Below are positions 1,366 to 33,979 of a DNA stretch of 64,000 nt, one piece after another. The notes beneath the pieces were generated by a model. It saw only the letters and a list, made by a program, of their open reading frames with translations. It was not told where the DNA came from and did no database searches. Source of the stretch: Candidatus Undinarchaeota archaeon (lineage in GTDB: Archaea; SpSt-1190; JASMDC01); assembly GCA_964519305.1 (NCBI GenBank), contig CAZFHY010000014.1, forward strand, positions 32,001-96,000, given 5' to 3'. The first letter of the stretch is position 1; each line of letters starts with the position of its first letter. Both the position numbers and the translations under genes were made by a program.

Positions 1366-1454
1366 TGGACCGGGCGGGATTTGAACCCGCGGCCATTGCC
1401 TTTCTTGTGATTTCTCATTGCAAGGGCAACACTCTTCCACTGAGCTACCGGCCC
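1366..1454 (-). tRNA. tRNA-Ala(UGC) with 17-nt canonical 37/38 intron (1402-1418)
   Basis: Revcomp GGGCCGG TA GCTCAGTGGAAGAGT G TTGCC CTTGCA[ATGAGAAATCACAAGAA]A GGCAA TGGCC GCGGG TTCAAAT CCCGC CCGGTCC A; cloverleaf plus bulge-helix-bulge; CCA not encoded. Confidence 0.96.
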
Positions 1455-16807: not shown

Positions 16808-17617
16808 CTACGTCCTAGAGCTCTGCCCTTCCTCGATACCTTCCCTGATGCTACGGGCGAATGCACGTATTTCGTCCAACGAGGCATCAGGATCGTCAAG
16901 ATACTGCTCATAGATGCTCCCTATTGCGCTGCCGGTGATCACGCCATCGGCGCCGGCTGAGACCACCGCGGTCGCCTGTTCCTGCTTCGAAATTCCGAAA
17001 CCGACAAGGAGCGGGATGTCAGAGTGAGCTCGAACCCTCTCGATGAGCCTTAAAGTCGCCTCATGGAGCGATTCCCTGGCACCGGTGACACCGGCGACGG
17101 AAACCACGTAGACGAATCCACGGGCAACTGAAAGGATCTTTTCGAGACGGTCGTCAGGGGTGGTCGGGGCGACGAGGAAGATAATATCGATACCGTTCTG
17201 CTCACTTGCCTCTAGCAGGTCATCAGCTTCCTCTATCGGGACATCGGGAACGATAAGGGCGCATGCTCCTGCGTCCTTGATCCTCTTGACGAAAGACCCT
17301 ACCCCCATATGGTAGATGATGTTATAGTAGGAGGTGACGACGATGGGTTGCGTGATGCCCTCATCCCGGAGCTTACTGATCGACTCTATGGTCTTAGAAG
17401 GGGTCATACCGGCCTTCAGCGCCCGCTCGCAGGCCCGCTGGAACACGGGACCATCGGCAGTGGGGTCCGAGAATGGTATACCCAGCTCGATGATGGACAC
17501 GCCGCTATCGCACAGTGCTTTGATCTCCTTCAGGGAGAACCCTTCGCTGGGATCGCCGTAGTATACATGTGCCATGTACGCTACCTTTTCCTTGGCGAAC
17601 AGCTCACTGAGGTTCAC
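16808..17617 (-). CDS. trpA: Tryptophan synthase alpha chain
   Basis: [29 protein letters not shown]. Confidence 0.97.
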
Positions 17618-18795
17618 AGGCTCACCCCCTCTAGTCCAGCGATCATATGGACGTCCTTATCCCCCCTGCCAGAGAGGCAAACGATGATAATGTCATCCTT
17701 CTCGAGGCTCGGAGCAAGGTCCTTGAGATGCGCAAGTGCGTGCGAACTCTCCAGAGCGGGGATGATCCCCTCGACCTTGGACAGGAGGTGGAACGCCTCG
17801 ACCGCTTCGTCGTCGGTCACAGCGACGTACTCAGCTCGCTTTAAGTCATTGTAGAACGCGTGCTCCGGCCCGACGCCCGGGTAGTCCAGGCCCGCCGAGA
17901 TGGAGTGCGCCTCGCGGATCTGGCCGTTCTCGTCCTGGATGAAGTAGCTCTTCTTACCGTGCATGATACCTACCTCGCCGGCACCAATGGAGGCACCGTG
18001 CTTGCCGGTAGCGATACCCTTACCAGCGGCCTCGACGCCCACCATACGGACATCGTCATCGAAGAAAGGATGAAAAAGACCCATAGCGTTACTGCCACCG
18101 CCGACACAAGCGACGAGGCAGCTGGGAAGCTGTCCCTCCTGCTCCAGTATCTGTCGCCTGGCCTCGATACCGATGACGGCCTGGAAGTCGCGAACCATGG
18201 TCGGATAGGGATGCGGGCCCACGACCGATCCGATGACGTAGTGGGTGTTCCGGCAGTTTGCGGTATAGTCCCTCATTGCTTCATTGACAGCATCCTTGAG
18301 CGTCCTGGAACCAGAGGTGACCGGTACGACCCGTGCACCGAACAACCGCATTCTGAAAACGTTCAGTGATTGGCGCTGGATGTCGACCTCACCCATATAT
18401 ACGTCGCACTCGAGCCCTAGAGCTGCCGCTGCCGCAGCTGTGGCAACGCCATGTTGACCAGCTCCAGTTTCTGCGATTATCCTCGTCTTTCCCATCCGCT
18501 TAGCAAGGAGCACATGGCCCAGGGTGCTGTTGATCTTGTGGGCTCCAAGGTGGGCGAGGTCTTCGCGTTTAAGGTAGATCTTGGCACCACCAAGAAGCTC
18601 GGTCAGACGATGTGCGAGGTACAGCGGTGTCGGCCTGCCCGCGAACTTTTCCAGGTATAGTCTCAGCTCCTTCTGGAAATCCTCGTCGGTCTGCACCTCC
18701 CTGTACGCTGCGTCCAGCTCCTGGAGTATGGGCATGAGCGTCTCAGGGACGAACTGGCCACCGTACTCGCCGAAATAAGCATCATCGTTCCTCAT
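17614..18795 (-). CDS. trpB: Tryptophan synthase beta chain (TrpB1)
   Basis: [50 protein letters not shown]. Confidence 0.98.
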
Positions 18796-19430
18796 TCTTT
18801 ACACCTCTTCACGAACTGTCTGACCTTCTCAGGGTCTTTTCTCCCGTCGTCCGACTCGACACCGGAGGACACGTCGACCATGTACGGACCGAGCTTAAGC
18901 GCCTCATCTACGTTGTCGGGTGTAAGACCGCCAGCGATGCTGAATCGCGGGCAATATCGTATATAGGGGGAGAGCGCGGTCGCGTAATCGGTACTCAAAC
19001 CCATGCCGCCGACCTTCCCGTCATGCGTCGGCTCGAAAAGTAAAAGGTCACAGACCTCCACGAACCCCTCGAGCTCTTCGATGGTCGACGAGAGCTTCCC
19101 GGTCATGACATCGACGCCTACTGCACGAACGATTCTGAAGCCGCTGTCCCGCATCCTTGTGAGCTGACTAGCGGTCAGTGTGTACACCTGCAGCACGTCG
19201 GCCTTGACGCGCTCTCCCTTCTCGATGAACTCCTCTGCTGTAACGGGGAATCCGATGAGCGTAGAATCGACCGAGGGGCCCAAACGTCCGATGATGTCCT
19301 TGATCTGTTCAAGTGGGACGTTCCTCTTCCGGCCCTCAACGCTGACGAAACCGATGGCGTCCACACCCGCGGCCTTGCATATCAATGCATCCTCGAAGCT
19401 CCGAACCCCGCAGACCTGCACCTTCGTCAT
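18792..19430 (-). CDS. trpF: Phosphoribosylanthranilate isomerase (divergent)
   Basis: [20 protein letters not shown]; operon position. Confidence 0.9.
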
Positions 19431-20221
19431 CGTACCACCTCATCTCCCGCGGCTACAAGCTCTGCGACCTTTCTGGAGACGCTGTCGGCCGTCATCAGGG
19501 ACGAGCCGACCAGGACCGCATCCACACGACCGCCCGACGATGCGTACGCATGCTCGATGTCGGCTGCTGTCGATATGCCAGAGGCGCTCACGAAAGCGAT
19601 GTCGTTCGCCAGCCCCTTGCCGATGGCGGCATTCTTGAGGTCGAAAGACAGATCGCCGTAGATGTCCCGGTTGTTTATCTCGATGATCGTAGCGCCAACG
19701 CCCAATGCCTTTTCGATCTCGTCGGGTGTGTTGGCTTCGATGAACGCTTCCATACCAAGGGCCTCGCCAAGCTCGATGAGCCTGCCCGCATCCTGTAGGA
19801 CCGCGTCGACGACACGGACCATGAGCAGATAGGCGTCCGCGCCCGCTACCATGCACTCCGCCAGCTGACGTGGTGAGAACAGGAAGCCCTTGGCGAGTAA
19901 TGGTAGGTCGGTGCACTCTCGCACTGTCCTGAGGTTCTCGAGGCTACCCCCGAAACGCCGTGGCTCCACCAGGACCGAGATAGCATGCGCACCGCCCGAT
20001 TCGAGCTCCTCGACTATTGAAGGTATCTCACGTGCTCCAATGCTCCTGAGCTCTCCCCTGCTGGGGGAGGACGGCTTAAGCTCGGCGATGACACGCACTC
20101 CATTCCTGCGACCGTCGCGGAGAGCGTCGTACATACCACGGACGTTCTTTTTTTCACGCAGTATATCGTCGACTATATCCCCGACGGCCTTCCCCAGGAG
20201 CTCGTGCGTACTCATCGTCAC
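19427..20221 (-). CDS. trpC: Indole-3-glycerol phosphate synthase (divergent)
   Basis: IAELKPSSPS, AISVL, INNRD, LVGSSLM. Confidence 0.93.
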   Translation of the reverse strand: MTMSTHELLGKAVGDIVDDILREKKNVRGMYDALRDGRRNGVRVIAELKPSSPSRGELRSIGAREIPSIVEELESGGAHAISVLVEPRRFGGSLENLRTVRECTDLPLLAKGFLFSPRQLAECMVAGADAYLLMVRVVDAVLQDAGRLIELGEALGMEAFIEANTPDEIEKALGVGATIIEINNRDIYGDLSFDLKNAAIGKGLANDIAFVSASGISTAADIEHAYASSGGRVDAVLVGSSLMTADSVSRKVAELVAAGDEVVR

Positions 20222-21234
20222 TAGTTCCCGAAACCCTTGGACCGCTCGATCAGCTGATCGAGCTTCTCCCGGGCCTTTCCGCTCTTGATGGCCTGGCGTG
20301 CGAGCTCGATACCCTCTGCGATGTCGCCGGCCTTGTCGGCGGCATAGAGGGCAGCGCCCGCGTTCAGAAGGACGATGTCCGTGTACGGCGAGTCATCACC
20401 GTCCAGCACCGAGCGGGTGATGGCGGTGTTATCCTCTGGAGTCCCGCCCTGGATGTCCTCGAGCTTGGCACGGTCGAGCCCGAACTGCTCGGGGGTCAGG
20501 TAGTAAGTCTCCACCTTGCCGTCCTTCAGTTCAGAAACCTTCGTCCTATCGATGGTGGAAAGCTCGTCCAGGCCTGAGCCGTGCACTACCAGAGCGTGGC
20601 GGAGACCGAACTTGCCCAGCACGCGGGCCAACGGCTCGGTGAGCCGTTCGTCGTACACACCGATAACCTGGTGCGCCACGTTCGCGGGATTCGTAAGAGG
20701 TCCGAGCACGTTGAACACTGTCCGGATACCGATCTCCCTCCGCGGGCCGATTGCGTACTTCATGGCCTTGTGGAAAGTCGGCGCGAAGATGAAGCCGATC
20801 CCAACGTCGCGTATGCACGTCTCGACGTCCTTTGGTGACAGGGTGATATCCACGCCCAAGCTCTCGAGGAGGTCGGCGGACCCAGACCTGCTCGATACGC
20901 TCCTGTTCCCATGCTTGGCGACGGACACACCCGCACCGGCCACGACGAACGCGACAGTGGTACTGATGTTGAACGTCCCGGCGCAGTCGCCGCCCGTCCC
21001 GCAGGTGTCCACCGCAGTGCCCTGGACCGAGATGCTCTCGGCCTTCTGTCGCATCACGGTAGCGCATGCGAAGATCTCATCCACTGTCTCGCCCTTCAGT
21101 CTGAGCGCGGTCAGGAACGCAGCGATCTGCGCGGGCGTAGCGTCACCGCCCATGATCTCGTTCATAACGTCGAGCGCCTCTTTCTCCGACAGGTCCTTGC
21201 CTTCGATGACTTTCTTGATTGCATCTTTTATCAT
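20221..21234 (-). CDS. trpD: Anthranilate phosphoribosyltransferase
   Basis: DTCGTGGD, FNIST, KHGNRSVSSRSGSAD, GLDE. Confidence 0.98.
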   Translation of the reverse strand: MIKDAIKKVIEGKDLSEKEALDVMNEIMGGDATPAQIAAFLTALRLKGETVDEIFACATVMRQKAESISVQGTAVDTCGTGGDCAGTFNISTTVAFVVAGAGVSVAKHGNRSVSSRSGSADLLESLGVDITLSPKDVETCIRDVGIGFIFAPTFHKAMKYAIGPRREIGIRTVFNVLGPLTNPANVAHQVIGVYDERLTEPLARVLGKFGLRHALVVHGSGLDELSTIDRTKVSELKDGKVETYYLTPEQFGLDRAKLEDIQGGTPEDNTAITRSVLDGDDSPYTDIVLLNAGAALYAADKAGDIAEGIELARQAIKSGKAREKLDQLIERSKGFGN

Positions 21235-21804
21235 TCATGCTCCCTCCAGGAAGTTTCTGAGGATGTCCCTACCATGTTCTGTGAGTATAGATTCGGGATG
21301 GAACTGGACGCCGTGGATCGGGTACTCGCGGTGCCGGACCGCCATGATCTCGTCGGCCTCTGTCCTGCCTGTGATCTCCAGCTGGTCGGGGAAACCTTCA
21401 AGGGCGATGACGAGCGAGTGGTATCTGGTCGCGGTGATGGGGGTCGGTACATCGGCGAAGATGCCCGTGCCGGTGTGATGGACGCGGCTCGTCTTCCCGT
21501 GAAGGAGGTTGGCCGCCCGCTCGATCGTGCCCCCGAACACGAGCCCCATGGCCTGATGGCCCAGGCACACACCGAGGGTCGGTATCTTCCTGCTCATCGT
21601 CCGCAGTATGTCGAGGGTGACGCCCGAGTCCTTGGGATGGCCGGGCCCCGGACTGAGCACGATCCTGTCCGGTTTTGCGGCCATGGCCTCCTTAAGGGTG
21701 ATGTCGTTCCTCTTAACGATGATCTCTGCTCCCATCTCGCCAAGGTACTGTGCTATGTTGTACACGAACGAGTCGTAGTTATCGATGATGAGGACCCTGA
21801 CCAT
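21235..21804 (-). CDS. trpG: Anthranilate synthase component II (glutamine amidotransferase)
   Basis: IDNYDSF, SPGPG, GVCLGHQ, RYHSL, QFHPES. Confidence 0.97.
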   Translation of the reverse strand: MVRVLIIDNYDSFVYNIAQYLGEMGAEIIVKRNDITLKEAMAAKPDRIVLSPGPGHPKDSGVTLDILRTMSRKIPTLGVCLGHQAMGLVFGGTIERAANLLHGKTSRVHHTGTGIFADVPTPITATRYHSLVIALEGFPDQLEITGRTEADEIMAVRHREYPIHGVQFHPESILTEHGRDILRNFLEGA

Positions 21805-21805
21805 C

Positions 21806-23203
21806 TCAGCCGCCCCCCAGCACCGACATCATGGCGCCCATCTTGTTCTCCGTTTCGATGAACTCGTTCTCTGGGACAGAGTCCGCGACGATACCGGCGC
21901 CCGCCTGCAGGTACGCCTTGTTCCCCTTAGTGAATATCGATCTGATCGTGATGGCGAAGTCCATGTTCCCGCAGAAGTCAAAGTATCCGACCGCGCCAGC
22001 GTAAGGCCCCCGCCGGGTCATCTCGAGCTCCTCGATGATCTCCATTGCCCTGATCTTAGGAGCGCCCGAGACGGTGCCCGCCGGGAAGCATGAGCGCAGC
22101 GCGTCGAAGCAGTCCCGGTCCTTACGCAGCCTGCTCGTGACGTTCGAGACGATATGCTGGACATGTGAGTACTTCTCGCAGCCCATGAGCTCGTCCACCT
22201 TGACAGATCCGTACTCGGAGACGCGGCCCATGTCGTTGCGGTGCAGGTCCACGAGCATGATGTGCTCGGCCCGCTCCTTCTCGTCGAGAAGCATGCTCAC
22301 TTTCAGCTTCTCGTCCTCCTCGGGGTCCTTGGACCGGGGACGCGTGCCGGCCAGTGGCCGGGTGGTCAGGACGCTGTTCTCGAGCCGCACGAGCATCTCG
22401 GGAGAGGAACCGAAGACCTTCGACTCGGCGAAGTCGATGTAGAAGAGGTAGGGTGAGGGATTCACTTGCCTGAGGATCCGGTACATGTCGAACTCATTGC
22501 CCTTGAAGGTCGCTTCCGTCCGCCTCGAGATTACCGACTGGAATATGTCGCCCGCCCGGATGTACTCCTTCGCCTGCTCGACCGCGTTCTCGAATGCCGG
22601 GCTCTTCATATTGGTCCTCGGCTTACCGATCGTGAGCTCTTCTCGTTCCTCATCTCGATAGCTGTTGATAAGACCCTCGACCTCTCGGGCGGATCCGTGG
22701 GAGATCAGGTAGGCCTTCTGGTTGATGTGGTCGAAGCAGACGACCTGTGACGGAATGATGAAGTGCGCATCGGGAAGGTTCAGCTCGTCCGTTCTCAGTT
22801 CAGGGAGCCGCTCGAAGAACCTGACGATATCGTAGGAGAAGTATCCCACCATTCCACCCGAGAACGGGAGGAAGTCGACGGGCTCGGCACTGAAGTCGTA
22901 GAACTCGCGTCGCAGATAGTCGTACGGGTCCTCGCACTTCTCTCGGGTGCCATTGAACCGCACCTCGTGTCCCTTGGACCTGAAGGATAAGACCGGATCG
23001 AATCCGATAAATGAGTACCGCGCGGTCTTCTTGGTCCCCTCCACCGACTCCAGGAGGAAGCTCTCGTCCTTGTACTCCTGTTTGATCGCAGCGTATGCGC
23101 CCACGACGTCGAACCTGTCGAGACGGAGGTTCCGGACACGTGTTTTCAGAAGGTGTGGGTTGGACGTGGGACTACCTTTGCGCTTCTTTCCGCCGACGCC
23201 AAA
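21806..23203 (-). CDS. trpE: Anthranilate synthase component I; start unresolved (first canonical in-frame start is GTG 23104; frame stays open up to the TGA at 23221-23219)
   Basis: FLLESVEG, RYSFIG, NPSPY, SSPE, RPLAGT, AEHIMLVDL, FPAGTVSGAPK; TrpE-like sequence appears to extend upstream of 23104. Confidence 0.95.
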   Translation of the reverse strand, partial: FGVGGKKRKGSPTSNPHLLKTRVRNLRLDRFDVVGAYAAIKQEYKDESFLLESVEGTKKTARYSFIGFDPVLSFRSKGHEVRFNGTREKCEDPYDYLRREFYDFSAEPVDFLPFSGGMVGYFSYDIVRFFERLPELRTDELNLPDAHFIIPSQVVCFDHINQKAYLISHGSAREVEGLINSYRDEEREELTIGKPRTNMKSPAFENAVEQAKEYIRAGDIFQSVISRRTEATFKGNEFDMYRILRQVNPSPYLFYIDFAESKVFGSSPEMLVRLENSVLTTRPLAGTRPRSKDPEEDEKLKVSMLLDEKERAEHIMLVDLHRNDMGRVSEYGSVKVDELMGCEKYSHVQHIVSNVTSRLRKDRDCFDALRSCFPAGTVSGAPKIRAMEIIEELEMTRRGPYAGAVGYFDFCGNMDFAITIRSIFTKGNKAYLQAGAGIVADSVPENEFIETENKMGAMMSVLGGG

Positions 23204-23222
23204 GATGATCCCTCCTTTTCAT
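23172..23222 (-). CDS. Candidate trp leader uORF MKRRDHLWRRRKEAQR with putative +1 slip site CTT-TGG (23204-23199)
   Basis: ATG 28 nt downstream of a TATA box; single Trp codon; a +1 shift enters the trpE frame. Confidence 0.6.
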   Translation of the reverse strand: MKRRDHLWRRRKEAQR

Positions 23223-23250
23223 GTGACCGAATAGAATAGACGCTTCCAGC

Positions 23251-23258
23251 TATATAAA
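23251..23258 (-). promoter_or_regulatory. trp operon TATA box
   Basis: TTTATATA on the minus strand in an AT-rich intergenic region. Confidence 0.75.
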
Positions 23259-23271
23259 GATTGCTATTATA

Positions 23272-23312
23272 TGTTGATAATTGTACATTATTGTCCATTT
23301 TATTATTGTCCA
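23272..23312. promoter_or_regulatory. TRP-box-like operator array
   Basis: TGTTGA-N4-TGTACA-N4-TGTCCA-N9-TGTCCA; includes an ATTATTGTCCA direct repeat. Confidence 0.55.
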
Positions 23313-23357
23313 CCCCTAGTAAAAGTATAAGAACCGGATCAGGCCGCATCCCGCCAC

Positions 23358-24734
23358 ATGGACGCTGAACACCTAGTTCCGCCAGATGAGCTCTACGACA
23401 AGGCGGTAACCTTCTTCGAGGGTGTCAGCAAGTACGACAAAGTGCTGGTCTATGGTGACGGTGATCCTGATGGGATGACCGCAGCGGTATGCGTGTCCGA
23501 GGTGCTGGACGCCCGACTCGCCACCTATGATGTGCGGTTCACCCGGGGCCAGCTCAATACAAAGGATGTCGAACAGGTGGCACGTGGCGGGTACAACAAG
23601 ATCTACTGCACTGACTTCTGGGAGATCTACGAGTCGCCCGTAGAGGTCGTCGCCGACATGGTCGAGAAGGTGAAGGAGTTCGTGGTGTATGATCATCATG
23701 ACATCCGCACCGCGGGGCGAGAGAACCTCGACCGCCTGTACGAGGAACTTGACAGGCGTGGCATCCGTGACCGGTTCACTCTCATAAATCCTAATCTGGA
23801 GGGCGTCGTCGAAGTCCCCAATGGCTCGGCATGGGAGTACCGGGTCGCCGAGCGGTACGTCGCCCGCCACCCGCGGGCGTTGCTCGGTAAGCATATGGCG
23901 CGACTCAAGGAGGTGGCGACAGCAGGAGCGATCCTCGACTACTGTGCACCACAGTCTGCCGACCTCGTGGCCGAGACGCTGCTCGAGCATCCCGATTCCC
24001 TCGACTGCGACCGGACGGTCCTGAGGAAAGCGCTGGATGACTACCAGAACGCCATACCGGAGGACGCTGTTACGTTTACTGCACTGAAGGAAGCACTGCC
24101 GTCGCAGAACGAACTGCTCGGCTCAACCTTCGGTCTCGCCGGGCGTAACACGTTCGCCAATTGGATTGTCGCTGGATGGCGCGGAGCACAGGACGTGTAT
24201 AAGGCGGCCAAGTCCATGGTCCGCGGAACTGGCTCCTTCAATGACCTCGTAGAGGACACGGGCAGGTTCCCTGCGTACTTCAAGAACGTGAACCGCGTGG
24301 AGGGCGAACTGACTTCACAGTACGCGATATTCGAAAAGGACCTGGAGCGTCACGAGCGGGGAGAGGATACGACCGCGACCTCGTTCGATGACGAGCTGGA
24401 GCTCGCTGTGTTCCAGTACTCCTCGGAGGATCCCTTGCGTTTCGCCAGCCATCTGTCCACAAACCTGCGCGACCGACATCCAGAGTTCACTTGGTTCGTA
24501 TACCAGATCAACGAGGAGAAGGGGTGGGCCGGTGGGAGCCTGCGTCTTGACGAGGAGCATTTCCCACAGTACGACCTCGCCCGCGCTGTAGCCGAAGCGT
24601 CAAAGGGCATTGACGGGGCACGCGGTGGTGGCCACAGTGCCGCCAGTGGAGCGAGCATGGCCGAGAAGGACCTCCCGCAGTTCATTGAGCGTATCAAGGA
24701 AGAGCTCAGGCAGCAGCGGAGTGCACCTGAATAA
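23358..24734 (+). CDS. DHH-DHHA1 family phosphoesterase (divergent RecJ-like)
   Basis: GDGDPDG, CTD, YDHH, GGSLR, GGGHSAASG. Confidence 0.85.
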   Translation: MDAEHLVPPDELYDKAVTFFEGVSKYDKVLVYGDGDPDGMTAAVCVSEVLDARLATYDVRFTRGQLNTKDVEQVARGGYNKIYCTDFWEIYESPVEVVADMVEKVKEFVVYDHHDIRTAGRENLDRLYEELDRRGIRDRFTLINPNLEGVVEVPNGSAWEYRVAERYVARHPRALLGKHMARLKEVATAGAILDYCAPQSADLVAETLLEHPDSLDCDRTVLRKALDDYQNAIPEDAVTFTALKEALPSQNELLGSTFGLAGRNTFANWIVAGWRGAQDVYKAAKSMVRGTGSFNDLVEDTGRFPAYFKNVNRVEGELTSQYAIFEKDLERHERGEDTTATSFDDELELAVFQYSSEDPLRFASHLSTNLRDRHPEFTWFVYQINEEKGWAGGSLRLDEEHFPQYDLARAVAEASKGIDGARGGGHSAASGASMAEKDLPQFIERIKEELRQQRSAPE

Positions 24735-25250: not shown

Positions 25251-26036
25251 ATGCGAAGTGCTGTCACGCTACTAGTGCTCGTTCTCATCTGCGGCTGCAC
25301 CGGCGGTCCGGCGGACGACCTCGCAGCCAACACCACTACAGCAGGTACGGACGCACATGATAGGGCGAACCTATTATCGAAGGAGGCGTTACCGCTCCGT
25401 GTAGCACAACGTGAGCCGCTGGACCTCACAAGTGTCGAGAGCTTCGGACATTACCAGCGTTTCTGCAACGAGACCAACGTCCTCGTCGACGAGATGAACC
25501 GGGAGTTCGACCTCGGGATGCCTCGCATGGAGGCCACGCGTGAGGGCTGGGATAAGGCCGCCGTGACGATCAATGAGTATGGCCCGCTCATCCGCACGCA
25601 CAACGAGCTCATCGACACGGCCCGCGCTTATGAGAAGGAGCCTACAGAGGCGAACCTGGAACTCTTCTATCGCAAGTCAGGACGCTTCGCCCTGGAGACG
25701 ACGCTCATCTCAGGCCTGGTATTCTCGGTCCCCGGAATCACCATCATCAGAGTGGGTTATCACGCGACCAAGGTCAACCGGTTCGACTGGGACCGTTCCA
25801 GCAGCGTCACCAGGATGCTCAGTGAGGCCAGGGACACGACGAAGGAAGTGCTCGTCGAGACGAGCCAGACGCCGGCCGACGAGGCGATCGAGGGTATCCT
25901 CGAGATGGCGAAAGAGCAGGATGGGATTGAAGCGAGCTTCGATGATCTGAACGAGTCCCTCGGCGACCTGAAGGACGAGCTCGTCAGCGGGCTCGACGAT
26001 GTCCGACGTCAGGCGGCCGAGATCACGGACAGCTGA
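25251..26036 (+). CDS. Hypothetical lipoprotein
   Basis: MRSAVTLLVLVLICGC lipobox-like signal; TATA tttttata 28 nt upstream. Confidence 0.75.
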   Translation: MRSAVTLLVLVLICGCTGGPADDLAANTTTAGTDAHDRANLLSKEALPLRVAQREPLDLTSVESFGHYQRFCNETNVLVDEMNREFDLGMPRMEATREGWDKAAVTINEYGPLIRTHNELIDTARAYEKEPTEANLELFYRKSGRFALETTLISGLVFSVPGITIIRVGYHATKVNRFDWDRSSSVTRMLSEARDTTKEVLVETSQTPADEAIEGILEMAKEQDGIEASFDDLNESLGDLKDELVSGLDDVRRQAAEITDS

Positions 26037-26661: not shown

Positions 26662-26753
26662 GCGGTCCTGGAACGAAATATATATTTTGTATGGGTATTT
26701 TGGATACTCACATAACCGCTGAGTGGCACATAGATTATTAGGGAGGCATAGGA

Positions 26754-29700
26754 TTGGTAATCAAGTTATCCGCACATGGACGCAACAGGGCACAAATGGC
26801 AGTGGAGTTCCTGTTGAGCTATGGGTGGCTTATGGTCATCATCGTGATCGCGGGGGCAGCCATGTACGCCATGGGCATCCTCCGCCCAGGTACCTATGTC
26901 AAGACACATTGTGTTGGATTCGAGAGGCTCCATTACCACGACCACCTCTTCGGTGCTCCGGGGGAGCCCTTCATCTGGAACATGGAACACGATGATAGCG
27001 ATTATGACGACCGTGAGAGCGTGTTCGATCTACGGATCCAGAACGGTGCTGGGATCATGCTACGCGTCACTGAGATGGACGTGCATTATCCCGAGGGCAC
27101 TCACGTGAAGTGGTCCGAGAAGGGCTTTGGCTGCGCCTATTACAATACAGCAGGGAACGTCAGCTCGGGATGCCGCGAGCAGAACGTGTCCGAGGCCGAG
27201 CTGACGACCCTCTCCGTCGAGGACGTCGGAGCGGGCACGCTGGACCTGAAGCATGGCTCGGTCTATCATATGAAGGTGAAGGTGACCTTCGACATTTTCA
27301 CACAACTCGGAGACCATTCAGAGACGGCAATCTGCTCTGGCAAGATCGAGGCTGGAGGGACGACCATCTCGGCCATGTCCGTACAAACGTACACCCTCGA
27401 CTCGAGCTTCGGAGGTGCGGACGCGGTGTATGCCACGGACATTGACGGTGACGGGGACAATGACATCCTGGGAGCTTCGTTCAACCTCGACGATATCTCG
27501 TGGTGGGAGAACGGCAATGACTGGGCAAAACACGACGTCGACACGAATTTCGACGGTGCTCGATTCGTTTATGCCGTAGATATTTCCGGCGACAGTGTCG
27601 TGGACGTGTTCGGTGCGGCGAATGGAGGGAACGAGATCGCGTACTGGACGAACAACGGGGATGGATCGAGCTGGTCCAAGACCAGCATCGACTCGAGCTT
27701 CGGTGGCGCCTGTTCTGTGTACGTGGCGGACATCAACGGTGACGGCAGCCTGGACGTCCTCGGAGCGGCCAACCTGACCGACCAGATCGCTTGGTGGAAG
27801 AACACCGGTGGCGGGTGGTCCAAGGGCACGCTCGCCAGCGATTTCGATGCGGCGCGCGACGTATATGCAGTGGACATCGACGGTGACGATGACCTCGACG
27901 TTCTCGGAGCGGCCTACAACAGCGACGAGATCGCCTGGTGGGAGAACGGCGGTGGCACATCGCCCTCATTCTCAAAGCACACAATCGACTCGAGCTTCGA
28001 CGGTGCCAGTTCGGTCATGGGGATCGACATGGACGGCGACGGCGACAATGACGTCGTCGGAGGCGCTTATGAGGCCGGTAGTATCGTCTGGTGGGAGAAC
28101 GACAACGGCGATGGTTCCAGCTGGACGAGCCATGAGATATCAGGGGATTACGAGCACGTGACATCGATCTTCGCCATGGATATGGACGGTGACGGGGATA
28201 TCGACGTCGTCGCCGCCCAGTACAACGACGGATCGGTCTCCTGGTTCGAGAACACAGGTGTCCGCTGGGAGCAGCGGATGGTACAGAGCAGTTTCCACGG
28301 AGCCATGTCGGTCCACGCGGCCGACCTATCGGGTGACAGCTTCCCCGACGTGCTCGGGGCCGCAGAGATTGTCGACACGGTCTCCTGGTGGGAACTGACC
28401 CACACACGACGGGCAGGACAAGGACGGGGCGGTACATCAGGCTCGTCCTCCGGCAGCGGTACCGGCAGCGGTACCGGCAGCGGTACCGGGAGCGGAACGG
28501 GCAGTGGAACCGGTTCAGGCACAGGGACCGGCACCGGTAGCGGTTCTGGTGGCGACACGAGCCCGCCGTCCATCACGCTCACATCGGTCGGAGGCGACAG
28601 TTCCACCGCCTATTCGACCTCTGACAACACACCCGATATTGCTATCACTACCGACGAGAACGGGTCCTGCCGTGCCAGTGCGACCGACGAGAGCTACACA
28701 GACATGAGCGATGACATCACCTGCTCCGGCGGCGGTAGCACCAGCCACACATGCACGTTCACAACGCTTTCCGATGGTTCAACGACGCTATATGTCGCCT
28801 GCACAGATACGAGCAGCAACGAGCACACAGCATCCACGAATACCGGGATAACTCTTGAAGTCGACACAGCGACACCCACCCAGTCCGGATGGGACCCGGC
28901 CGACCAGGCATCCGTGTCCTCCAGCTCACCGACGATCAACATAACGCTGAACGAGAACGGTGACTGCAAGTGGAGCCTCACCGACCAGGCCTACGGTGAC
29001 ATGACGGGCGACTGCACGGGCGACGGGACCACGTCGATCTTGTGCGCGACCAGCGGGCTCGTGACCGGGACCGAGGAGATCTTCATCGCGTGCCGCGACG
29101 ACACCGACACTTCGCCGAACGCTGACACAACGGACTCCAACTCGGAGCTCACGTACACGGTCAGCGAGGGCGGCGTCGCCGGTATCACCCTCACGTCCGC
29201 GGGCGGAGATTCCTCCACTGGGGACGTCTCGACCTCCGACAACACTCCTGAGATAGTCATCACCACCGGCGAGAACGCCTACTGCCGTGCAGGAACCTCC
29301 GACGAGAGCTACGGTGATATGGCGGACGACATCACCTGCACCGGTGGCGGTGGCACCAGCCACACTTGCACCTTCCCGACACAGTCGGATGGGACCGTGA
29401 CGCTACACGTCTCGTGCAAGGACGGTGACGGCAACGAGGACACCTCGGAGACGAACATCGACATAACCATGACCATCGACACCCAGCCGCCATCGACGTC
29501 CGGTGAGTCACCGTCAAGCGGATCGACTGTCACCACAACCTCTCCGACCATCACCATCACCCTTGACGAAGCAGGAGACTGCAAGTGGGACCTTGACGAC
29601 GACGCCTACGCTAGCATGTCGGGCGACTGCACCGGCGATGGTACGACGTCCATCTCGTGCGCTACCAGCGAGATACACGCGGGCGAGGAGATAGTCTACA

Positions 29701-30848
29701 TAGGGTGCCGTGACGAGACCGAGGGCGGTGGGGCCAACGGCGACACCGCGGATACCAACACCGAGATATCGCTCACCGTTGACGCGGACGCGATCGCGGA
29801 CACGGAGGCCATCGGTAGCGGCTACAGCGTGGTCATCGGCGACACCGGAGGCTACGTGACGATCCTGCGTAACGACTATGCGGACAACACACACTGGACG
29901 GCCATCCAGGTGGACCAGCACGACAACGTCGGTGATGTGGCCGTCGGCGATTTCAACGGCGACGACGAGGTCGATATCGTATCGGGCTCGAGCACAGGCC
30001 GTATCTACTTCTACGAGCAGACCTCGAGCGGTGACGGCTCGGCATGGGACACGATCACGTGGACCGGGAGCTCATCCGCTGTGAAAGGCATCGCCCTGAT
30101 GAACCTTGACGGTGATAGCGACGATGACATGGCGACCGCTCATTCAGGCGGTGAGGTCAGACGCTCCCTCAATCCCGGCACCGGTGGCGCTTGGACTAAC
30201 ACCACGATCGCGGACTTCAGCAATCCTGTCGCGCTCACATCGCTCGACGTGGGCGACGTCGACGGCGACAACGACCTGGACTACGTGGTAGGGGACGGTG
30301 CGAACAAGGTTCGGCTGGTCCTGGATAGCGGCGGTTGGAGCTCCTTGACGGTATACAGCGGGACCAAGGACGTCAACGATGTGGCCTTCGGCAACATCAA
30401 TGGCGCGGGCGGCCTGGACATAGTCATGGGCGGTACCGATGCGGCCGTCAGCTTCCTCACCAACACCGGCGGCTCGTTTACAGGACCCACCACGATCGGC
30501 AGCCTCTCCAACACGCTCTGGGCGCTGGACGTCTACGACGTGGACGGTGACGGTGACCTCGATGTCGTGACCGGAGACGGTGGAGGCAGCACCGGATACG
30601 TCAAGCTCCACCGCAACGGTGGTGGCGGGAGCAGCTGGACCTCGGTCACTGTGCGCACGTCCTCGGGTGGCGACATCAACGCCGTGGAGATCATCGACGT
30701 GGACCAGGACGGCGACGGCGACGTGCTCTCGGCTGGAAAGGACAACCTCGTGGTGCTGAGCATCAACGACGGTAACTACAACGACAACTGGTCGTCGTCA
30801 ACGATGTACACCGCGACCCACACGGTCAACACGCTGGCGCCCATCTGA
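26754..30848 (+). CDS. Giant class III (type IV pilin-like) signal peptide surface protein: FG-GAP/VCBS propeller - GT/GS linker - duplicated Ig-like units - second FG-GAP propeller
   Basis: RA|QMAVEFLLSYGW; many DxDGDGDxD Ca-binding repeats; paired-Cys beta-sandwich units. Confidence 0.88.
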   Translation: MVIKLSAHGRNRAQMAVEFLLSYGWLMVIIVIAGAAMYAMGILRPGTYVKTHCVGFERLHYHDHLFGAPGEPFIWNMEHDDSDYDDRESVFDLRIQNGAGIMLRVTEMDVHYPEGTHVKWSEKGFGCAYYNTAGNVSSGCREQNVSEAELTTLSVEDVGAGTLDLKHGSVYHMKVKVTFDIFTQLGDHSETAICSGKIEAGGTTISAMSVQTYTLDSSFGGADAVYATDIDGDGDNDILGASFNLDDISWWENGNDWAKHDVDTNFDGARFVYAVDISGDSVVDVFGAANGGNEIAYWTNNGDGSSWSKTSIDSSFGGACSVYVADINGDGSLDVLGAANLTDQIAWWKNTGGGWSKGTLASDFDAARDVYAVDIDGDDDLDVLGAAYNSDEIAWWENGGGTSPSFSKHTIDSSFDGASSVMGIDMDGDGDNDVVGGAYEAGSIVWWENDNGDGSSWTSHEISGDYEHVTSIFAMDMDGDGDIDVVAAQYNDGSVSWFENTGVRWEQRMVQSSFHGAMSVHAADLSGDSFPDVLGAAEIVDTVSWWELTHTRRAGQGRGGTSGSSSGSGTGSGTGSGTGSGTGSGTGSGTGTGTGSGSGGDTSPPSITLTSVGGDSSTAYSTSDNTPDIAITTDENGSCRASATDESYTDMSDDITCSGGGSTSHTCTFTTLSDGSTTLYVACTDTSSNEHTASTNTGITLEVDTATPTQSGWDPADQASVSSSSPTINITLNENGDCKWSLTDQAYGDMTGDCTGDGTTSILCATSGLVTGTEEIFIACRDDTDTSPNADTTDSNSELTYTVSEGGVAGITLTSAGGDSSTGDVSTSDNTPEIVITTGENAYCRAGTSDESYGDMADDITCTGGGGTSHTCTFPTQSDGTVTLHVSCKDGDGNEDTSETNIDITMTIDTQPPSTSGESPSSGSTVTTTSPTITITLDEAGDCKWDLDDDAYASMSGDCTGDGTTSISCATSEIHAGEEIVYIGCRDETEGGGANGDTADTNTEISLTVDADAIADTEAIGSGYSVVIGDTGGYVTILRNDYADNTHWTAIQVDQHDNVGDVAVGDFNGDDEVDIVSGSSTGRIYFYEQTSSGDGSAWDTITWTGSSSAVKGIALMNLDGDSDDDMATAHSGGEVRRSLNPGTGGAWTNTTIADFSNPVALTSLDVGDVDGDNDLDYVVGDGANKVRLVLDSGGWSSLTVYSGTKDVNDVAFGNINGAGGLDIVMGGTDAAVSFLTNTGGSFTGPTTIGSLSNTLWALDVYDVDGDGDLDVVTGDGGGSTGYVKLHRNGGGGSSWTSVTVRTSSGGDINAVEIIDVDQDGDGDVLSAGKDNLVVLSINDGNYNDNWSSSTMYTATHTVNTLAPI
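28452..28552 (+). repeat. Degenerate 12-nt tandem repeat encoding a (GSGT)n linker
   Basis: ggcagcggtacc x3 then synonymous variants. Confidence 0.85.
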
Positions 30849-30958
30849 GCGGAACGGGCCGACCGTTCAAACGGTTGCGCGAGCGTTGCGGGACGGTTAC
30901 AGGGAACCGATTTAAACAATCGAGCACATAGTCTATCAACAAGGTAGGTGGAGCAGTA

Positions 30959-33958
30959 ATGAAGTTCACGTTCTCACGCAAAGGTCAGGCATCCTTGGAG
31001 TTCCTGATGAGCTACGGGTGGCTGATGGTGATCATCGTCATCGCCGGAGCAGCGCTGTATGGTATGGGTATCCTCAATCCATCCACGTACCGCAAGACCG
31101 GCTGCATCGGTTTCGAGAAGATACACTACCGCGACCATCTCTTCCGTGCCACGGGAACGACGGGGATCTGGGACCTTACCATGGACAATGTGGATGCTGA
31201 CGACCGGGACAGCGACTTCAAGCTCCGTATCCAGAACGGTGGGGGGATGCAGATCCGCGTAAGCAACGTCGACGTCGAGTACCCGGAAGGTGTGCACGTG
31301 ACGTGGGCGGAGCGCGGGTACAACTGTGACTACTACAATACAGCAGGCGACACGACCAGCGGCTGCCGCGAGCAGAACGTGTCCGAGGGCGAGATCGGTA
31401 CGCTCTCCATCGAGGACGTGGGCGCCGGGACGGTGGACCTGCGCCATGGTGCCGGCTACCGGGCCAAGGTGAAGGTCTCCTTTGATGTGTTCAACGCAAT
31501 AGGCGACCATTCCGAGACCGCCATCTGCTCGGGCAAGATCGCGGGCGGCCAGGACCCCGAGGCAATCAGCCTCCTAGTCTCGTCGGGTGCCATCGACGAG
31601 GACGCTGGTACGTCCACCATCACCGCCCGGCTCTCGGGCCACAATGACCTGGACGTGCATGTCGTATTCACCATCTCGGGCACCGCCATTGACGGCACCG
31701 ACTATACCGTTGACCTTTACGAGGTGACCATCCCGCAGGGTGAACTGGAGAAGAGCATCACGATAACGTCCATCCACGACAGGGTGGACGAGGACGACGA
31801 GACCGTCGTGGCGACGATACAGAGCGTCTCCAACATCGCCCACAACCAGCATGGACAGTCGGCGACGGTCACCATCACGGACGATGACGACTCGGGCATC
31901 GTCACCGACAGCACGCCCGAGGTCTACGAGGACTCGGGCGATGGCTCGACGACGGACACGTACCAGGTCAAGATGAACAGTGATCCAACCTCGACCGTCA
32001 CCATCACGCTCGCAGAGACCGTCGACCATCACTCCGAACTTATTATCACGAGCTCGACGACGCTGACGTTCACCGGCGGCTCCGGTGGCACCTGGGACGA
32101 CTATCAGACCGTTACCATCGCTTCCGTGGACGATGACTATGACGAGCCGACCGATGAGCACAGCGGCCACATAACCCACACCGCCGCGAGCTCCGATCCG
32201 CGGTATGACGGGCAGTCACGCCAGATCAATCCTACTATCCACGACGATGACGTTGCCGGCATCACGCTCACCGAGGCCGGCGGGTCCACGGCGGTCGACG
32301 AGGATGGGGATCCCGACTCCGATACCTACACGGTCGTGCTGAACACCAGGCCGTACGAAGACGTCGTCATCTCAGTCACCGACGATGACGAAGCGTACAC
32401 CGACAAGAGCAGCCTGACGTTCAGCAACAGCGACTGGAGCTCGGCGCAGACCGTAACCGTCACCGCGTTCAAGGACTACATCGACGAGGTGACGGAGCCC
32501 CACTCGGCCACAGTCAGCCACAGTGTGTCCAGCTCCGACAACAAGTACAACGGCATGTCGCTCTCGTCCGTGTCGGTCAGCATCACCGACGATGATGCTG
32601 CGGGAGTGCAGATACCCGACAAGGATGATGAGGTCGACGAGGGTGCGACGGGTGACGGGTACTATGACATCGTGCTCACCAGCGAACCCGTCGGGACCGT
32701 GACCGTTACTATCGTGGACTTCGATGAGCAGTTCGAGGCAATGAGCCCGCTGACCTTCAATTCGGGCAACTGGAACTCCAGCCAGCGGGTGACCGTTACG
32801 GCCACCAACGACGACGTGGACGAGGCGGCAACGCACTTGCATTACATCTGGAACAGCTTCTCCAGTACAGGTCCCAAGTACACTTCTGGTTTCGTGGGCG
32901 TGGGTTTCACCATCACCGACAACGACGACGCTGGTATGATCCTCACAGAGTCAGGCGGCTCCACCGACGTCACCGAAGGCGGGGCCACCGACAGCTACAC
33001 CGTGGTCCTCGAGAGCGATCCTAACATGACCGTGACTGTGACCATGGCCAACGACGCGGACCTCCAATCAATGACGGCGCTCACCTTCAATGCCGGCAAC
33101 TGGAACTCTGCCCAGCCCGTTACCGTAACGGCCAATGACGATTCGCTGGACGAGACCTCACCGGAAACGAGTACGATCACCCACACGGTTACGAGCTCCA
33201 ACACCGACTACAATGGCTATGCACTGGGCAACGTCGATGCCGCAGTGACCGACGACGACGTGGCGACCATCACCCTCAACCTCGTTGACTCCCCGCTGAC
33301 TGAGAACGGCGGCACGGCCACGGTGAGCGCGACCGCGAGCACGCCAGTGGCGGCCGAGGTCACGATAACGCTGGCGTTCTCCGGGACGGCGGTCCTCACG
33401 ACCGACTACACCCGCTCGGGGACGAGCCTGACCATCCAGGCGGGCCAGACCTCGTCCAACACGGTCACCCTCACGGGTGTCAACGACGATTTCGATGACG
33501 ATCCCGTGACGGTGATCGTGGACATAGATGGCGTGAGCCCGGCAGAGAACGCAGCCGAGAGCGGCACCCAGCAGGAGACCGCGACGATCACCGACGACGA
33601 CACGGCAAGCATCACGGTCACTGAGTCTGGCGGCTCTACCGATGTCGACGAGGAAGGCGAGACATCGGACACCTATACGATCGTCCTCACGAGCGAGCCG
33701 ACAGCAAGTGTCACGATTGACATCTCATCGGCCGATGAGATCAACGGTGCGACCGTAAGCCCATCCCAGGTAGTGTTCGATGGCGGGAATCCCTGGAACA
33801 CACCGCAGACGGTGACTGTGACGGCAGAGGATGACGTCGATGATGAGGCGGATCCGCATACGGTCCTGATCACGAACGGGGCTGCCACCAGCGGTGATGG
33901 TGATTACAGCGGCATGAACCCGGCCGACGTGACCGCGAACATCACCGACAACGATTAG
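30959..33958 (+). CDS. Giant class III signal peptide surface protein with Calx-beta-like repeats
   Basis: KG|QASLEFLMSYGW; repeats ending TITDDD; LTFxxxNWNxxQxVTVTA motifs. Confidence 0.88.
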   Translation: MKFTFSRKGQASLEFLMSYGWLMVIIVIAGAALYGMGILNPSTYRKTGCIGFEKIHYRDHLFRATGTTGIWDLTMDNVDADDRDSDFKLRIQNGGGMQIRVSNVDVEYPEGVHVTWAERGYNCDYYNTAGDTTSGCREQNVSEGEIGTLSIEDVGAGTVDLRHGAGYRAKVKVSFDVFNAIGDHSETAICSGKIAGGQDPEAISLLVSSGAIDEDAGTSTITARLSGHNDLDVHVVFTISGTAIDGTDYTVDLYEVTIPQGELEKSITITSIHDRVDEDDETVVATIQSVSNIAHNQHGQSATVTITDDDDSGIVTDSTPEVYEDSGDGSTTDTYQVKMNSDPTSTVTITLAETVDHHSELIITSSTTLTFTGGSGGTWDDYQTVTIASVDDDYDEPTDEHSGHITHTAASSDPRYDGQSRQINPTIHDDDVAGITLTEAGGSTAVDEDGDPDSDTYTVVLNTRPYEDVVISVTDDDEAYTDKSSLTFSNSDWSSAQTVTVTAFKDYIDEVTEPHSATVSHSVSSSDNKYNGMSLSSVSVSITDDDAAGVQIPDKDDEVDEGATGDGYYDIVLTSEPVGTVTVTIVDFDEQFEAMSPLTFNSGNWNSSQRVTVTATNDDVDEAATHLHYIWNSFSSTGPKYTSGFVGVGFTITDNDDAGMILTESGGSTDVTEGGATDSYTVVLESDPNMTVTVTMANDADLQSMTALTFNAGNWNSAQPVTVTANDDSLDETSPETSTITHTVTSSNTDYNGYALGNVDAAVTDDDVATITLNLVDSPLTENGGTATVSATASTPVAAEVTITLAFSGTAVLTTDYTRSGTSLTIQAGQTSSNTVTLTGVNDDFDDDPVTVIVDIDGVSPAENAAESGTQQETATITDDDTASITVTESGGSTDVDEEGETSDTYTIVLTSEPTASVTIDISSADEINGATVSPSQVVFDGGNPWNTPQTVTVTAEDDVDDEADPHTVLITNGAATSGDGDYSGMNPADVTANITDND

Positions 33959-33979
33959 GAGAGGGTGCGCCCCCCGGCC

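Follow-up and report, generated by a model that had tools for sequence, protein, structure and literature searches.

Possible leader control of a trpE gene that lacks a canonical start codon in an uncultured marine archaeon

In this study we describe the 5' region of trpE in an uncultured marine archaeon with a 3.6-Mb genome (G000), where a short upstream reading frame and a predicted hairpin precede the gene. The window, by which we mean the whole analysed stretch of 64,000 nucleotides (nt) of contig CAZFHY010000014.1, carries a tryptophan operon in the order trpE-G-D-C-F-B-A, with trpE first and all seven genes intact. Positions are those of the window, and the features of the trpE leader all lie on its minus strand. 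On the same strand are the coding region of trpE counted from its ancestral start position (21806-23167) and the genes trpG, trpD, trpC, trpF, trpB and trpA (16808-21804), which abut or overlap, as a preliminary description made from this DNA alone had stated. We compared the locus above all with G001, a congener genome, and with L025, an independent metagenome contig; P0001 denotes the TrpE protein of the window. Among the genomes compared G001 is the only other species of the genus, with 95% protein identity.

The trpE gene and its 5' region

A TATA box (TTTATATA, 23258-23251; TTTAAATA at this place in G001) is followed after a gap of 28 nt by the near-leaderless ATG (23222-23220) of a first upstream open reading frame, uORF1 (23172-23222), which has 16 codons, among them one tryptophan codon (TGG, 23201-23199), and ends at TAG 23174-23172. 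The identical gap is seen at a lipoprotein-like gene with its ATG at 25251. The trpE frame is +1 relative to the uORF1 ATG and is open from 23218, after TGA 23221-23219; its first ATG, GTG or TTG is a GTG at 23104 (23102-23104). A sequence resembling a Shine-Dalgarno (SD) element, AGGAGG(GATC) at 23207-23216 with the AGGAGG itself at 23216-23211, stands 6 nt before CTT 23204-23202, which is directly followed by the TGG. This CTT-TGG (23199-23204) is the proposed slip site, where re-pairing on TTT 23203-23201 enters the trpE frame; it also belongs to the 5' arm of the predicted hairpin and is complementary to the SD of trpE, AAAGGT (23174-23179). The AGGT of that SD lies 6 nt before ACG 23165-23167, which stands at the ancestral trpE start position, 4 nt after the uORF1 stop. 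A second upstream frame, uORF2 (23146-23202), opens at TTG 23202, 8 nt after GGAGG, runs for 18 codons and is kept open in G001; its stop TGA 23148-23146 overlaps CTG 23149-23147 (CTGA). From these elements the preliminary description had derived a prfB-like, tryptophan-sensing +1 frameshift, and we could confirm the coordinates of the TATA box and of both 28-nt gaps, the 16-codon frame, the CTT-TGG with AGGAGG 6 nt before it, the +1 re-pairing, and a trpE frame whose first canonical start is GTG 23104.

The layout is real DNA. Between 22900 and 23500 we found no differences and no gaps in the Logan contigs of 4 of 4 runs from 2 studies, at a depth of 9-35, although the window's own source may be among these runs, which are therefore not fully independent. 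The four-A ATGAAAAGG arrangement, the reading frames and the TAG recur unchanged in G001 and L025. Because the run contigs, G001 and L025 all share the layout, the sequencing indel that the preliminary description had wished to see checked is excluded as an artefact. In run X3 a second contig at 22959-23157 (depth 3x, 17 differences, G001-like at the listed sites) stands beside the G000-type contig, and related strains therefore share the habitat.

The product of trpE is an anthranilate synthase component I, with a TIGR00564 score of 518.5 bits against a cut-off of 517.7 and matches to both Pfam Anth_synt_I_N and Chorismate_bind. It is the sole TrpE of the G000 genome, since the only paralog (contig C11) passes the PabB cut-off and has a PabA-like gene next to it. 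Over codons 29-470 the nonsynonymous divergence (dN) between G000 and G001 is 0.022 and the synonymous divergence (dS) 0.51, giving a dN/dS of about 0.04. Judged from this low dN relative to dS, trpE is under strong purifying selection, and both lineages appear to have kept a working enzyme since they split. In codons 28-38 the two species differ at 3 nucleotides, all synonymous, and the following five differences are synonymous too; the segment therefore appears to be translated in both species, and by this comparison translation must begin upstream of 23137 in both. Codons 18-27, of which 19-27 form a variable N-terminal linker (23138-23164), change as neutral sequence would: they show 9 nucleotide differences between the two species, none of them synonymous, and no indels.

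Several start codons could be rejected on these grounds. GTG 23104 is GTC in G001 and has only synonymous changes upstream of it, and the preliminary description was right not to regard it as the true start. ATC 23206 is ACC in G001, and ATC 23209 stands 1 nt after the SD. The next canonical start in the trpE frame of G001 is a GTG within the conserved LLESVEG segment; P0123 and P0130 are called from this GTG and so lose 55 residues of P0001 (38 counted from the ancestral start), while the NCBI protein for G001 (P0122) has been given a CTG start, the equivalent of 23149. There is no ATG, GTG or TTG in G000 or G001 from which a complete TrpE could be made. An AGGT-N8-GTG arrangement inside trpE (23105-23116) is peculiar to G000, where it arose from a synonymous change of two bases (CGA>AGG, R35) together with GTC>GTG. 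It could be an emerging secondary start, giving a TrpE 21 residues shorter than the ancestral form. The GTG had earlier been described as lacking an SD; the SD-like AGGT does stand 8 nt upstream of it in G000, and both are missing in G001 (CGA, GTC), where the GAACCT/AGGTTC hairpin described for the same place is not kept either.

The protein search used the N-terminal 140 residues as query, supplemented with the members of two 90% clusters. Three relatives (P0002, P0127 and P0129, from the same 90% cluster and 5 contig records) begin with a methionine that aligns gap-free to T18 of P0001, and hence their ATG stands exactly at ACG 23167-23165. An ordinary in-frame ATG in relatives had been named beforehand as an observation that would refute the frameshift, and these three proteins have one. 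The outgroups P0003, P0005 and P0006, which are 63-64% identical in the N-terminal 140 residues (and P0005 74% along its full length), start within a few codons of the ACG site. Twelve distant TrpE loci (L003-L014) all have an ordinary start codon located 10-30 residues ahead of the conserved N-terminal segment, and no similar leader was found at any of the twelve. These alignments place the ancestral start of trpE at the ACG position 23167-23165. The cores of P0002, which is of the ATG type, and P0126, which is called from a far downstream GTG, are identical (0/395 differences), and ATG and non-ATG forms therefore seem to have switched recently, by the tree more than once. Gene calls that imply no canonical start come from 39 contig records against 5 of the ATG type; the 39 are not independent, as one stretch of DNA may appear under several gene calls.

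Among the 17 genomes of the class and phylum, trpE was found in G000 and G001 only. These two genomes are also large (3.6 and 3.8 Mb), whereas the other 15 measure 0.6-1.2 Mb and gave no TrpE match. The public labels for the genus disagree ('Candidatus Undinarchaeales' versus 'Methanopyri'); its placement or the biology of the lineage is noteworthy.

Conservation, signals and predicted fold of the leader

Over the 58 nt that run from the uORF1 ATG to the ACG, a single position separates G000 from G001. In 31 kb of collinear alignment between the two genomes the mean is 7.5 differences per 58 nt, and only 1.8% of 30,992 intervals of this length have at most 1 difference; within trpE 14 of 1359 are as conserved as the leader. 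The leader has 0 synonymous changes versus about 4.6 expected by our own arithmetic, and its conservation ends exactly at the ACG. In G001 and L025 uORF1 is identical to that of G000 save for CAT>CAC. This lone substitution (23205 T>C) is synonymous in the uORF1 frame and changes I to T in the trpE frame; it lies upstream of the slip site.

The leader is predicted to fold into a hairpin (23168-23212), with three extra pairs, to 23215/23162, in G000 only. In the stem GGGAT 23212-23208 pairs with GTCCC 23172-23168 and ATCTTTGGC 23206-23198 with GCGCAAAGGT 23183-23174, and two more pairs close an 8-nt loop. With a predicted energy of -21.8 kcal/mol, the fold of the G000 leader is matched in stability by 39 of 2000 dinucleotide shuffles, and its minimum-energy structure accounts for 51% of the ensemble; the G001 leader reaches -22.9 kcal/mol and is matched by 70 of 2000. 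The stem bases are almost never unpaired in the predicted ensemble, and the substitution at 23205 converts a U.G pair into C-G. The 5' arm contains CTTTGG, and the 3' arm contains the trpE SD, the uORF1 stop and the spacer. Sequestration of the SD, as known from the ermC and cat leaders, is seen in the predicted folds of both species, where AAAGGT is fully paired. When the footprint of a ribosome with TGG in its A site was imposed as a constraint, covering the 5' arm and the loop, the 3' arm retained only -1.2 kcal/mol. By the geometry assumed, the P sites of such a stalled ribosome and of one starting at the ACG would be 37 nt apart. On this reading of the fold, CTTTGG would be present as the complement of the trpE SD. 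Rfam gave no relevant match in 22900-23500, even at E values up to 10, and no terminator-like site was found in 23130-23228, the only hit lying inside trpE (23008-22992).

The spacing of these signals can be compared with the rest of the genome, whose 16S rRNA 3' end is GGATCACCTCC. Before 4005 first starts of long frames in G000, GGAGG peaks at 7-9 nt (43, 46 and 39 cases, versus 18 at 6 nt), and AGGT is enriched at 6-9 nt, a range that includes the AGGT 6 nt before the ACG of trpE. The sequence AGGAGGGATC is itself a genuine SD before AC-ATG on contig C11 and GTC-ATG on contig C2 (2-3 nt before the ATG). In prfB the SD-like element lies 3 nt from the slip codon. Because AGGAGGGATC stands at this same distance from a real ATG on C11 and the genomic optimum is 7-9 nt, the 6 nt between AGGAGG and CTT are a relaxed, initiation-like distance and not the compressed one of prfB. 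In leaderless genes the gap from the end of the TATA box to the ATG, scored as pairs upstream of 1051 ATG starts in G000, peaks at 22-23 nt (17 and 20 pairs), with 5 pairs at 28 nt. From this peak the transcript is predicted to start near 23228-23227, and the uORF1 ATG would probably lie 5-6 nt inside it.

We scanned G000 for further cases of the design, as had been suggested, and found none. A TATA box with an ATG at 28-39 nt, a frame of 4-40 codons and a long frame downstream occurs at 10 loci, of which none is comparable to trpE. Motif scans for an SD followed by CTT-T and TGG, TGA or TAR gave scattered intragenic hits only, and a codon-usage scan for 'startless' genes returned 1537 candidates in which trpE ranked 376th, too noisy for use. 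At two loci (C6:+92653 and C13:+115544) TATA-proximal ATGs open short frames of 23 and 7 codons in an ATGA arrangement, the long frame opening 4 nt after the ATG; unlike trpE, both genes have a canonical start codon within the short frame or directly behind it.

The genome has a tRNA-Leu(GAG) and a single tRNA-Trp gene. A tRNA with a four-base anticodon 'ccag', reported by ARAGORN when run without intron mode, turned out to be the intron-containing tRNA-Trp(CCA). An initiator-like tRNA reading ACG was not found among the two of three tRNA-Thr(CGT) calls that were checked: one is a normal elongator, and the other, which has an odd arm, is doubtful as a call. The third call is on C21 and has a 1564-nt 'intron'. 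The initiator tRNA is Met_C8. Introns are present in many tRNA genes of G000. The tRNA between the 16S and 23S rRNA genes of the window (1366-1454, minus strand) is assigned to tRNA-Cys(GCA) when intron mode is off and, with a 17-nt intron, to tRNA-Ala(TGC) when it is on. The alanine identity agrees with what archaeal rRNA spacers usually contain.

Upstream of the trpE TATA box, between 23277 and 23312, there are three direct 11-nt repeats (in plus-strand letters, ATTATTGTCCA twice and ATAATTGTACA), and G001 has at the same place (L002, 2492-2511) a perfect 10+10 palindrome around TGTACA, which we take to resemble the 'TRP box' of TrpY. The repeats look like a candidate operator for a DNA-binding regulator common to trpE and the divergent DHH/DHHA1 gene (23358-24734). 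Contig C54 of G001 is collinear with the window on both sides of about 7.3 kb (26697-33979) that have no counterpart there; this segment, which includes a frame of 1364 amino acids (26754-30848), may be an insertion or a deletion between the species.

How TrpE may be initiated

The account that we favour, tentatively and with a probability of roughly 0.4, is that the leader is a structured translational control element with an upstream reading frame, and that TrpE is initiated at or next to the ancestral site, now ACG. It builds on the layout, its conservation, the ATG of homologous relatives, the purifying selection and the predicted hairpin, from which we infer that uORF1 might be used, tryptophan sensed and ACG read as a start. 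In this account, which is the simplest, the ancestral initiation region (SD, spacer and codon position) would be retained in G000 and G001, with the near-cognate ACG replacing ATG. In the leader of about 60 nt the hairpin would hide the SD and the spacer of trpE, its opposing arm containing CTTTGG and part of AGGAGGGATC. As uORF1 runs through this hairpin, ribosomes translating it would melt the structure, and a ribosome awaiting Trp-tRNA at the TGG would occupy the 5' arm, leaving the SD and the start free. Since the footprint of such a ribosome leaves the predicted 3' arm nearly unstructured, a pause for Trp-tRNA would raise TrpE initiation, and scarcity of tryptophan would thus be answered by more enzyme. 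Initiation on the ACG might occur de novo or by re-initiation after the uORF1 stop, and no frameshift would be necessary. In this form the earlier idea that TGG acts as a sensor would survive with a different output: the leader is conserved and its in-frame tryptophan codon could sense Trp-tRNA, but the prfB-like +1 shift that was to follow is not supported. In a ribosome profiling study of Haloferax volcanii about 30% of putative alternative initiation sites are near-cognate (PMC7261190).

A number of points weigh against this account. The uORF1 ATG stands 28 nt from the TATA box, off the leaderless peak of 22-23 nt, and its use is putative; the TTG of uORF2 at 23202 is better placed behind the SD. 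We know of no native ACG start in an archaeon, although our search for one was not exhaustive, and a mismatch in the middle position of a start codon should be weak. There is a single tryptophan codon in uORF1, and about 1 in 6 frames of 16 codons would have one by chance; the need for CTTTGG to pair with the SD may be the sole reason for the TGG. As the uORF1 stop lies 4 nt before the ACG, full translation of uORF1 could drive re-initiation regardless of tryptophan. Finally, the hairpin only modestly beats the shuffles (about 2-3.5% are equally stable), and the pairing rests on the DNA of two species with one half-compensatory change.

The frameshift of the preliminary description would have the P-site Leu-tRNA slip from CTT to TTT when Trp-tRNA is scarce and produce an N-terminally extended TrpE, while ribosomes in tryptophan-rich cells would stop after 16 codons. 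Slippage at prfB and in yeast Ty1 works on this principle, with CTT-T placed before a codon that is decoded slowly. In favour of the model, a gene under purifying selection here has no canonical start, and the ATG, the frames, CTT-TGG and AGGAGG are all identical in G001 and L025; the sole substitution in the leader, at 23205, falls upstream of the slip site and is silent in the uORF1 frame, no stop interrupts the +1 frame between 23218 and the ancestral start, the genome has the tRNA-Leu(GAG) and its one tRNA-Trp gene, and a low-level shift, if it existed beforehand, would account for the tolerated loss of the ATG. However, the in-frame ATG of close relatives at the ACG position implies that the region upstream is an ancestral leader and not coding, and only the 17 codons upstream of the ancestral start are informative about the open frame, which by our estimate would be open by chance with a probability of about 0.4-0.5. 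The missing start is traced to an ATG>ACG change at a known position, and each of the model's first supports has thus found another explanation. The presence of CTTTGG is explained by its pairing with the SD in the hairpin, and the AGGAGG spacing of 6 nt is initiation-like; the slip site itself lies within the 5' arm of the hairpin, which therefore provides no downstream stimulator. None of the 10 candidate loci in G000 offers a second case of the design. According to PMC8211752, a single programmed frameshift (-1, in fucA1) is reported for archaea. A tryptophan-sensing frameshift was not found in the open-access literature among the matches listed. We consider this frameshift unlikely, although it keeps some weight because TrpE synthesis in the ACG-type genomes must in any case involve something non-canonical. 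Equally doubtful is the wider proposal that the leader is a tryptophan-sensing recoding switch which explains the replacement of ATG by ACG in several lineages; if true, it would be the first +1 programmed frameshift in archaea and the first case of a hungry codon gating an amino-acid operon by frameshift. Slippage elsewhere, either a +1 slip of Lys-tRNA on the AAA-AGG after the ATG or a -1 slip from the TTG frame at A-AAG (23179-23176), strikes us as very improbable: both sites permit perfect or wobble re-pairing into the trpE frame, and AAA is a rare codon in G000 (4.8 per 1000), but AGG is not (8.1 per 1000), neither site has a stimulator, and the arguments against needing a frameshift apply to them equally.

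Two further explanations do without any slip, and we hold each to be improbable, if less so than slippage at these other sites. TrpE might start at CTG 23149 by termination-reinitiation from the SD-led uORF2 (TTG 23202 to TGA 23148-23146). The TTG has the optimum spacing of 8 nt after GGAGG, uORF2 and its stop are kept in G001, a 10-nt island at 23155-23146 is conserved inside an otherwise neutral stretch, P0122 begins at this CTG, and the resulting N-terminus would be of normal TrpE length. No SD precedes the CTG, however, which is a weak start, and the hairpin also buries the TTG together with its SD; the two leucines encoded here are leucines in the ATG-type proteins as well, in which their position is internal beyond doubt, and the outgroups retain one of them, so that constraint on the protein explains the island. 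Alternatively, the ACG allele might be weak or null, for example in cells that take up tryptophan, and the leader an ordinary structured 5' untranslated region that senses nothing. The identical cores of ATG and non-ATG forms (P0002 and P0126) do look like recent switching. Against such an allele stand the ACG shared by G000 and G001 at a dS of about 0.5 with a dN/dS near 0.04, the intactness of all seven trp genes, and the excess of calls without a canonical start (39 versus 5 contig records, which are not independent).

Comparison with known systems

Whichever reading holds, translation of trpE is non-standard here, be it through a native ACG or CTG start, through control by leader and hairpin, or through a frameshift, and any one of them would be a novelty among archaeal amino-acid operons. 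The leader is among the 2% most conserved stretches of the locus, and the ATG and ACG alleles on near-identical genes amount to a natural experiment. There is also a consequence for annotation, as gene callers shorten TrpE by 21 to 44 residues or invent a CTG start.

Known archaeal control of tryptophan synthesis is transcriptional (PMC6737238), being exerted by TrpY in Methanothermobacter and Tar in Thermococcus. The same operon is controlled in those cases, and the repeats found before the trpE TATA box suggest additional control by a DNA-binding regulator; TrpY and Tar, however, act on transcription, whereas the element described here lies in the transcribed leader. The AUU start of infC, which encodes initiation factor 3, offers a likeness of another kind, namely a conserved non-canonical start on a gene of essential function that is tolerated through its mode of use. 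The codon in trpE is ACG, though, with no evident feedback by an initiation factor, and ATG and ACG forms coexist among close relatives. With transcription attenuation at trpL and in the his and leu operons the leader shares a peptide with a cognate codon upstream of the operon and a fold decided by the position of a ribosome. It differs in having one tryptophan codon instead of a tandem, neither a terminator hairpin with a T-run nor an alternative antiterminator, and an output that would be translation initiation and not transcription termination.

Bacterial prfB, the gene of release factor 2, resembles the trpE leader in its CTT-T slip codon (kept in G001 and L025) followed by a codon that reports the regulated quantity, in an SD-like AGGAGG upstream and in a short 0-frame product that ends soon after. 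In trpE, however, the A-site codon is the sense codon TGG and not a stop, with the 0-frame stop 9 codons on; the SD-like element is at 6 nt and not at 3 nt; the slip site comes 7 codons from a near-leaderless start, in an archaeal host; and close relatives of G000 have their own downstream ATG. The leader thus lacks two or three of the features that define prfB-type shifting. The leader also resembles the bacterial translational attenuation of ermC, cat and cmlA, where likewise the leader frame overlaps the 5' arm, the 3' arm hides the SD of the regulated gene and a ribosome stalled in the leader would free it. The proposed stall at trpE would be caused by a hungry tryptophan codon and not by a drug-dependent arrest peptide, and here the leader frame is near-leaderless and the regulated start ACG. 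In the open-access literature we found, among the matches listed, no leader-peptide translational attenuation in archaea and none for trp control there. The trpE leader shows the features of leader-peptide translational attenuation that can be predicted in silico, with a leader frame whose translation is putative.

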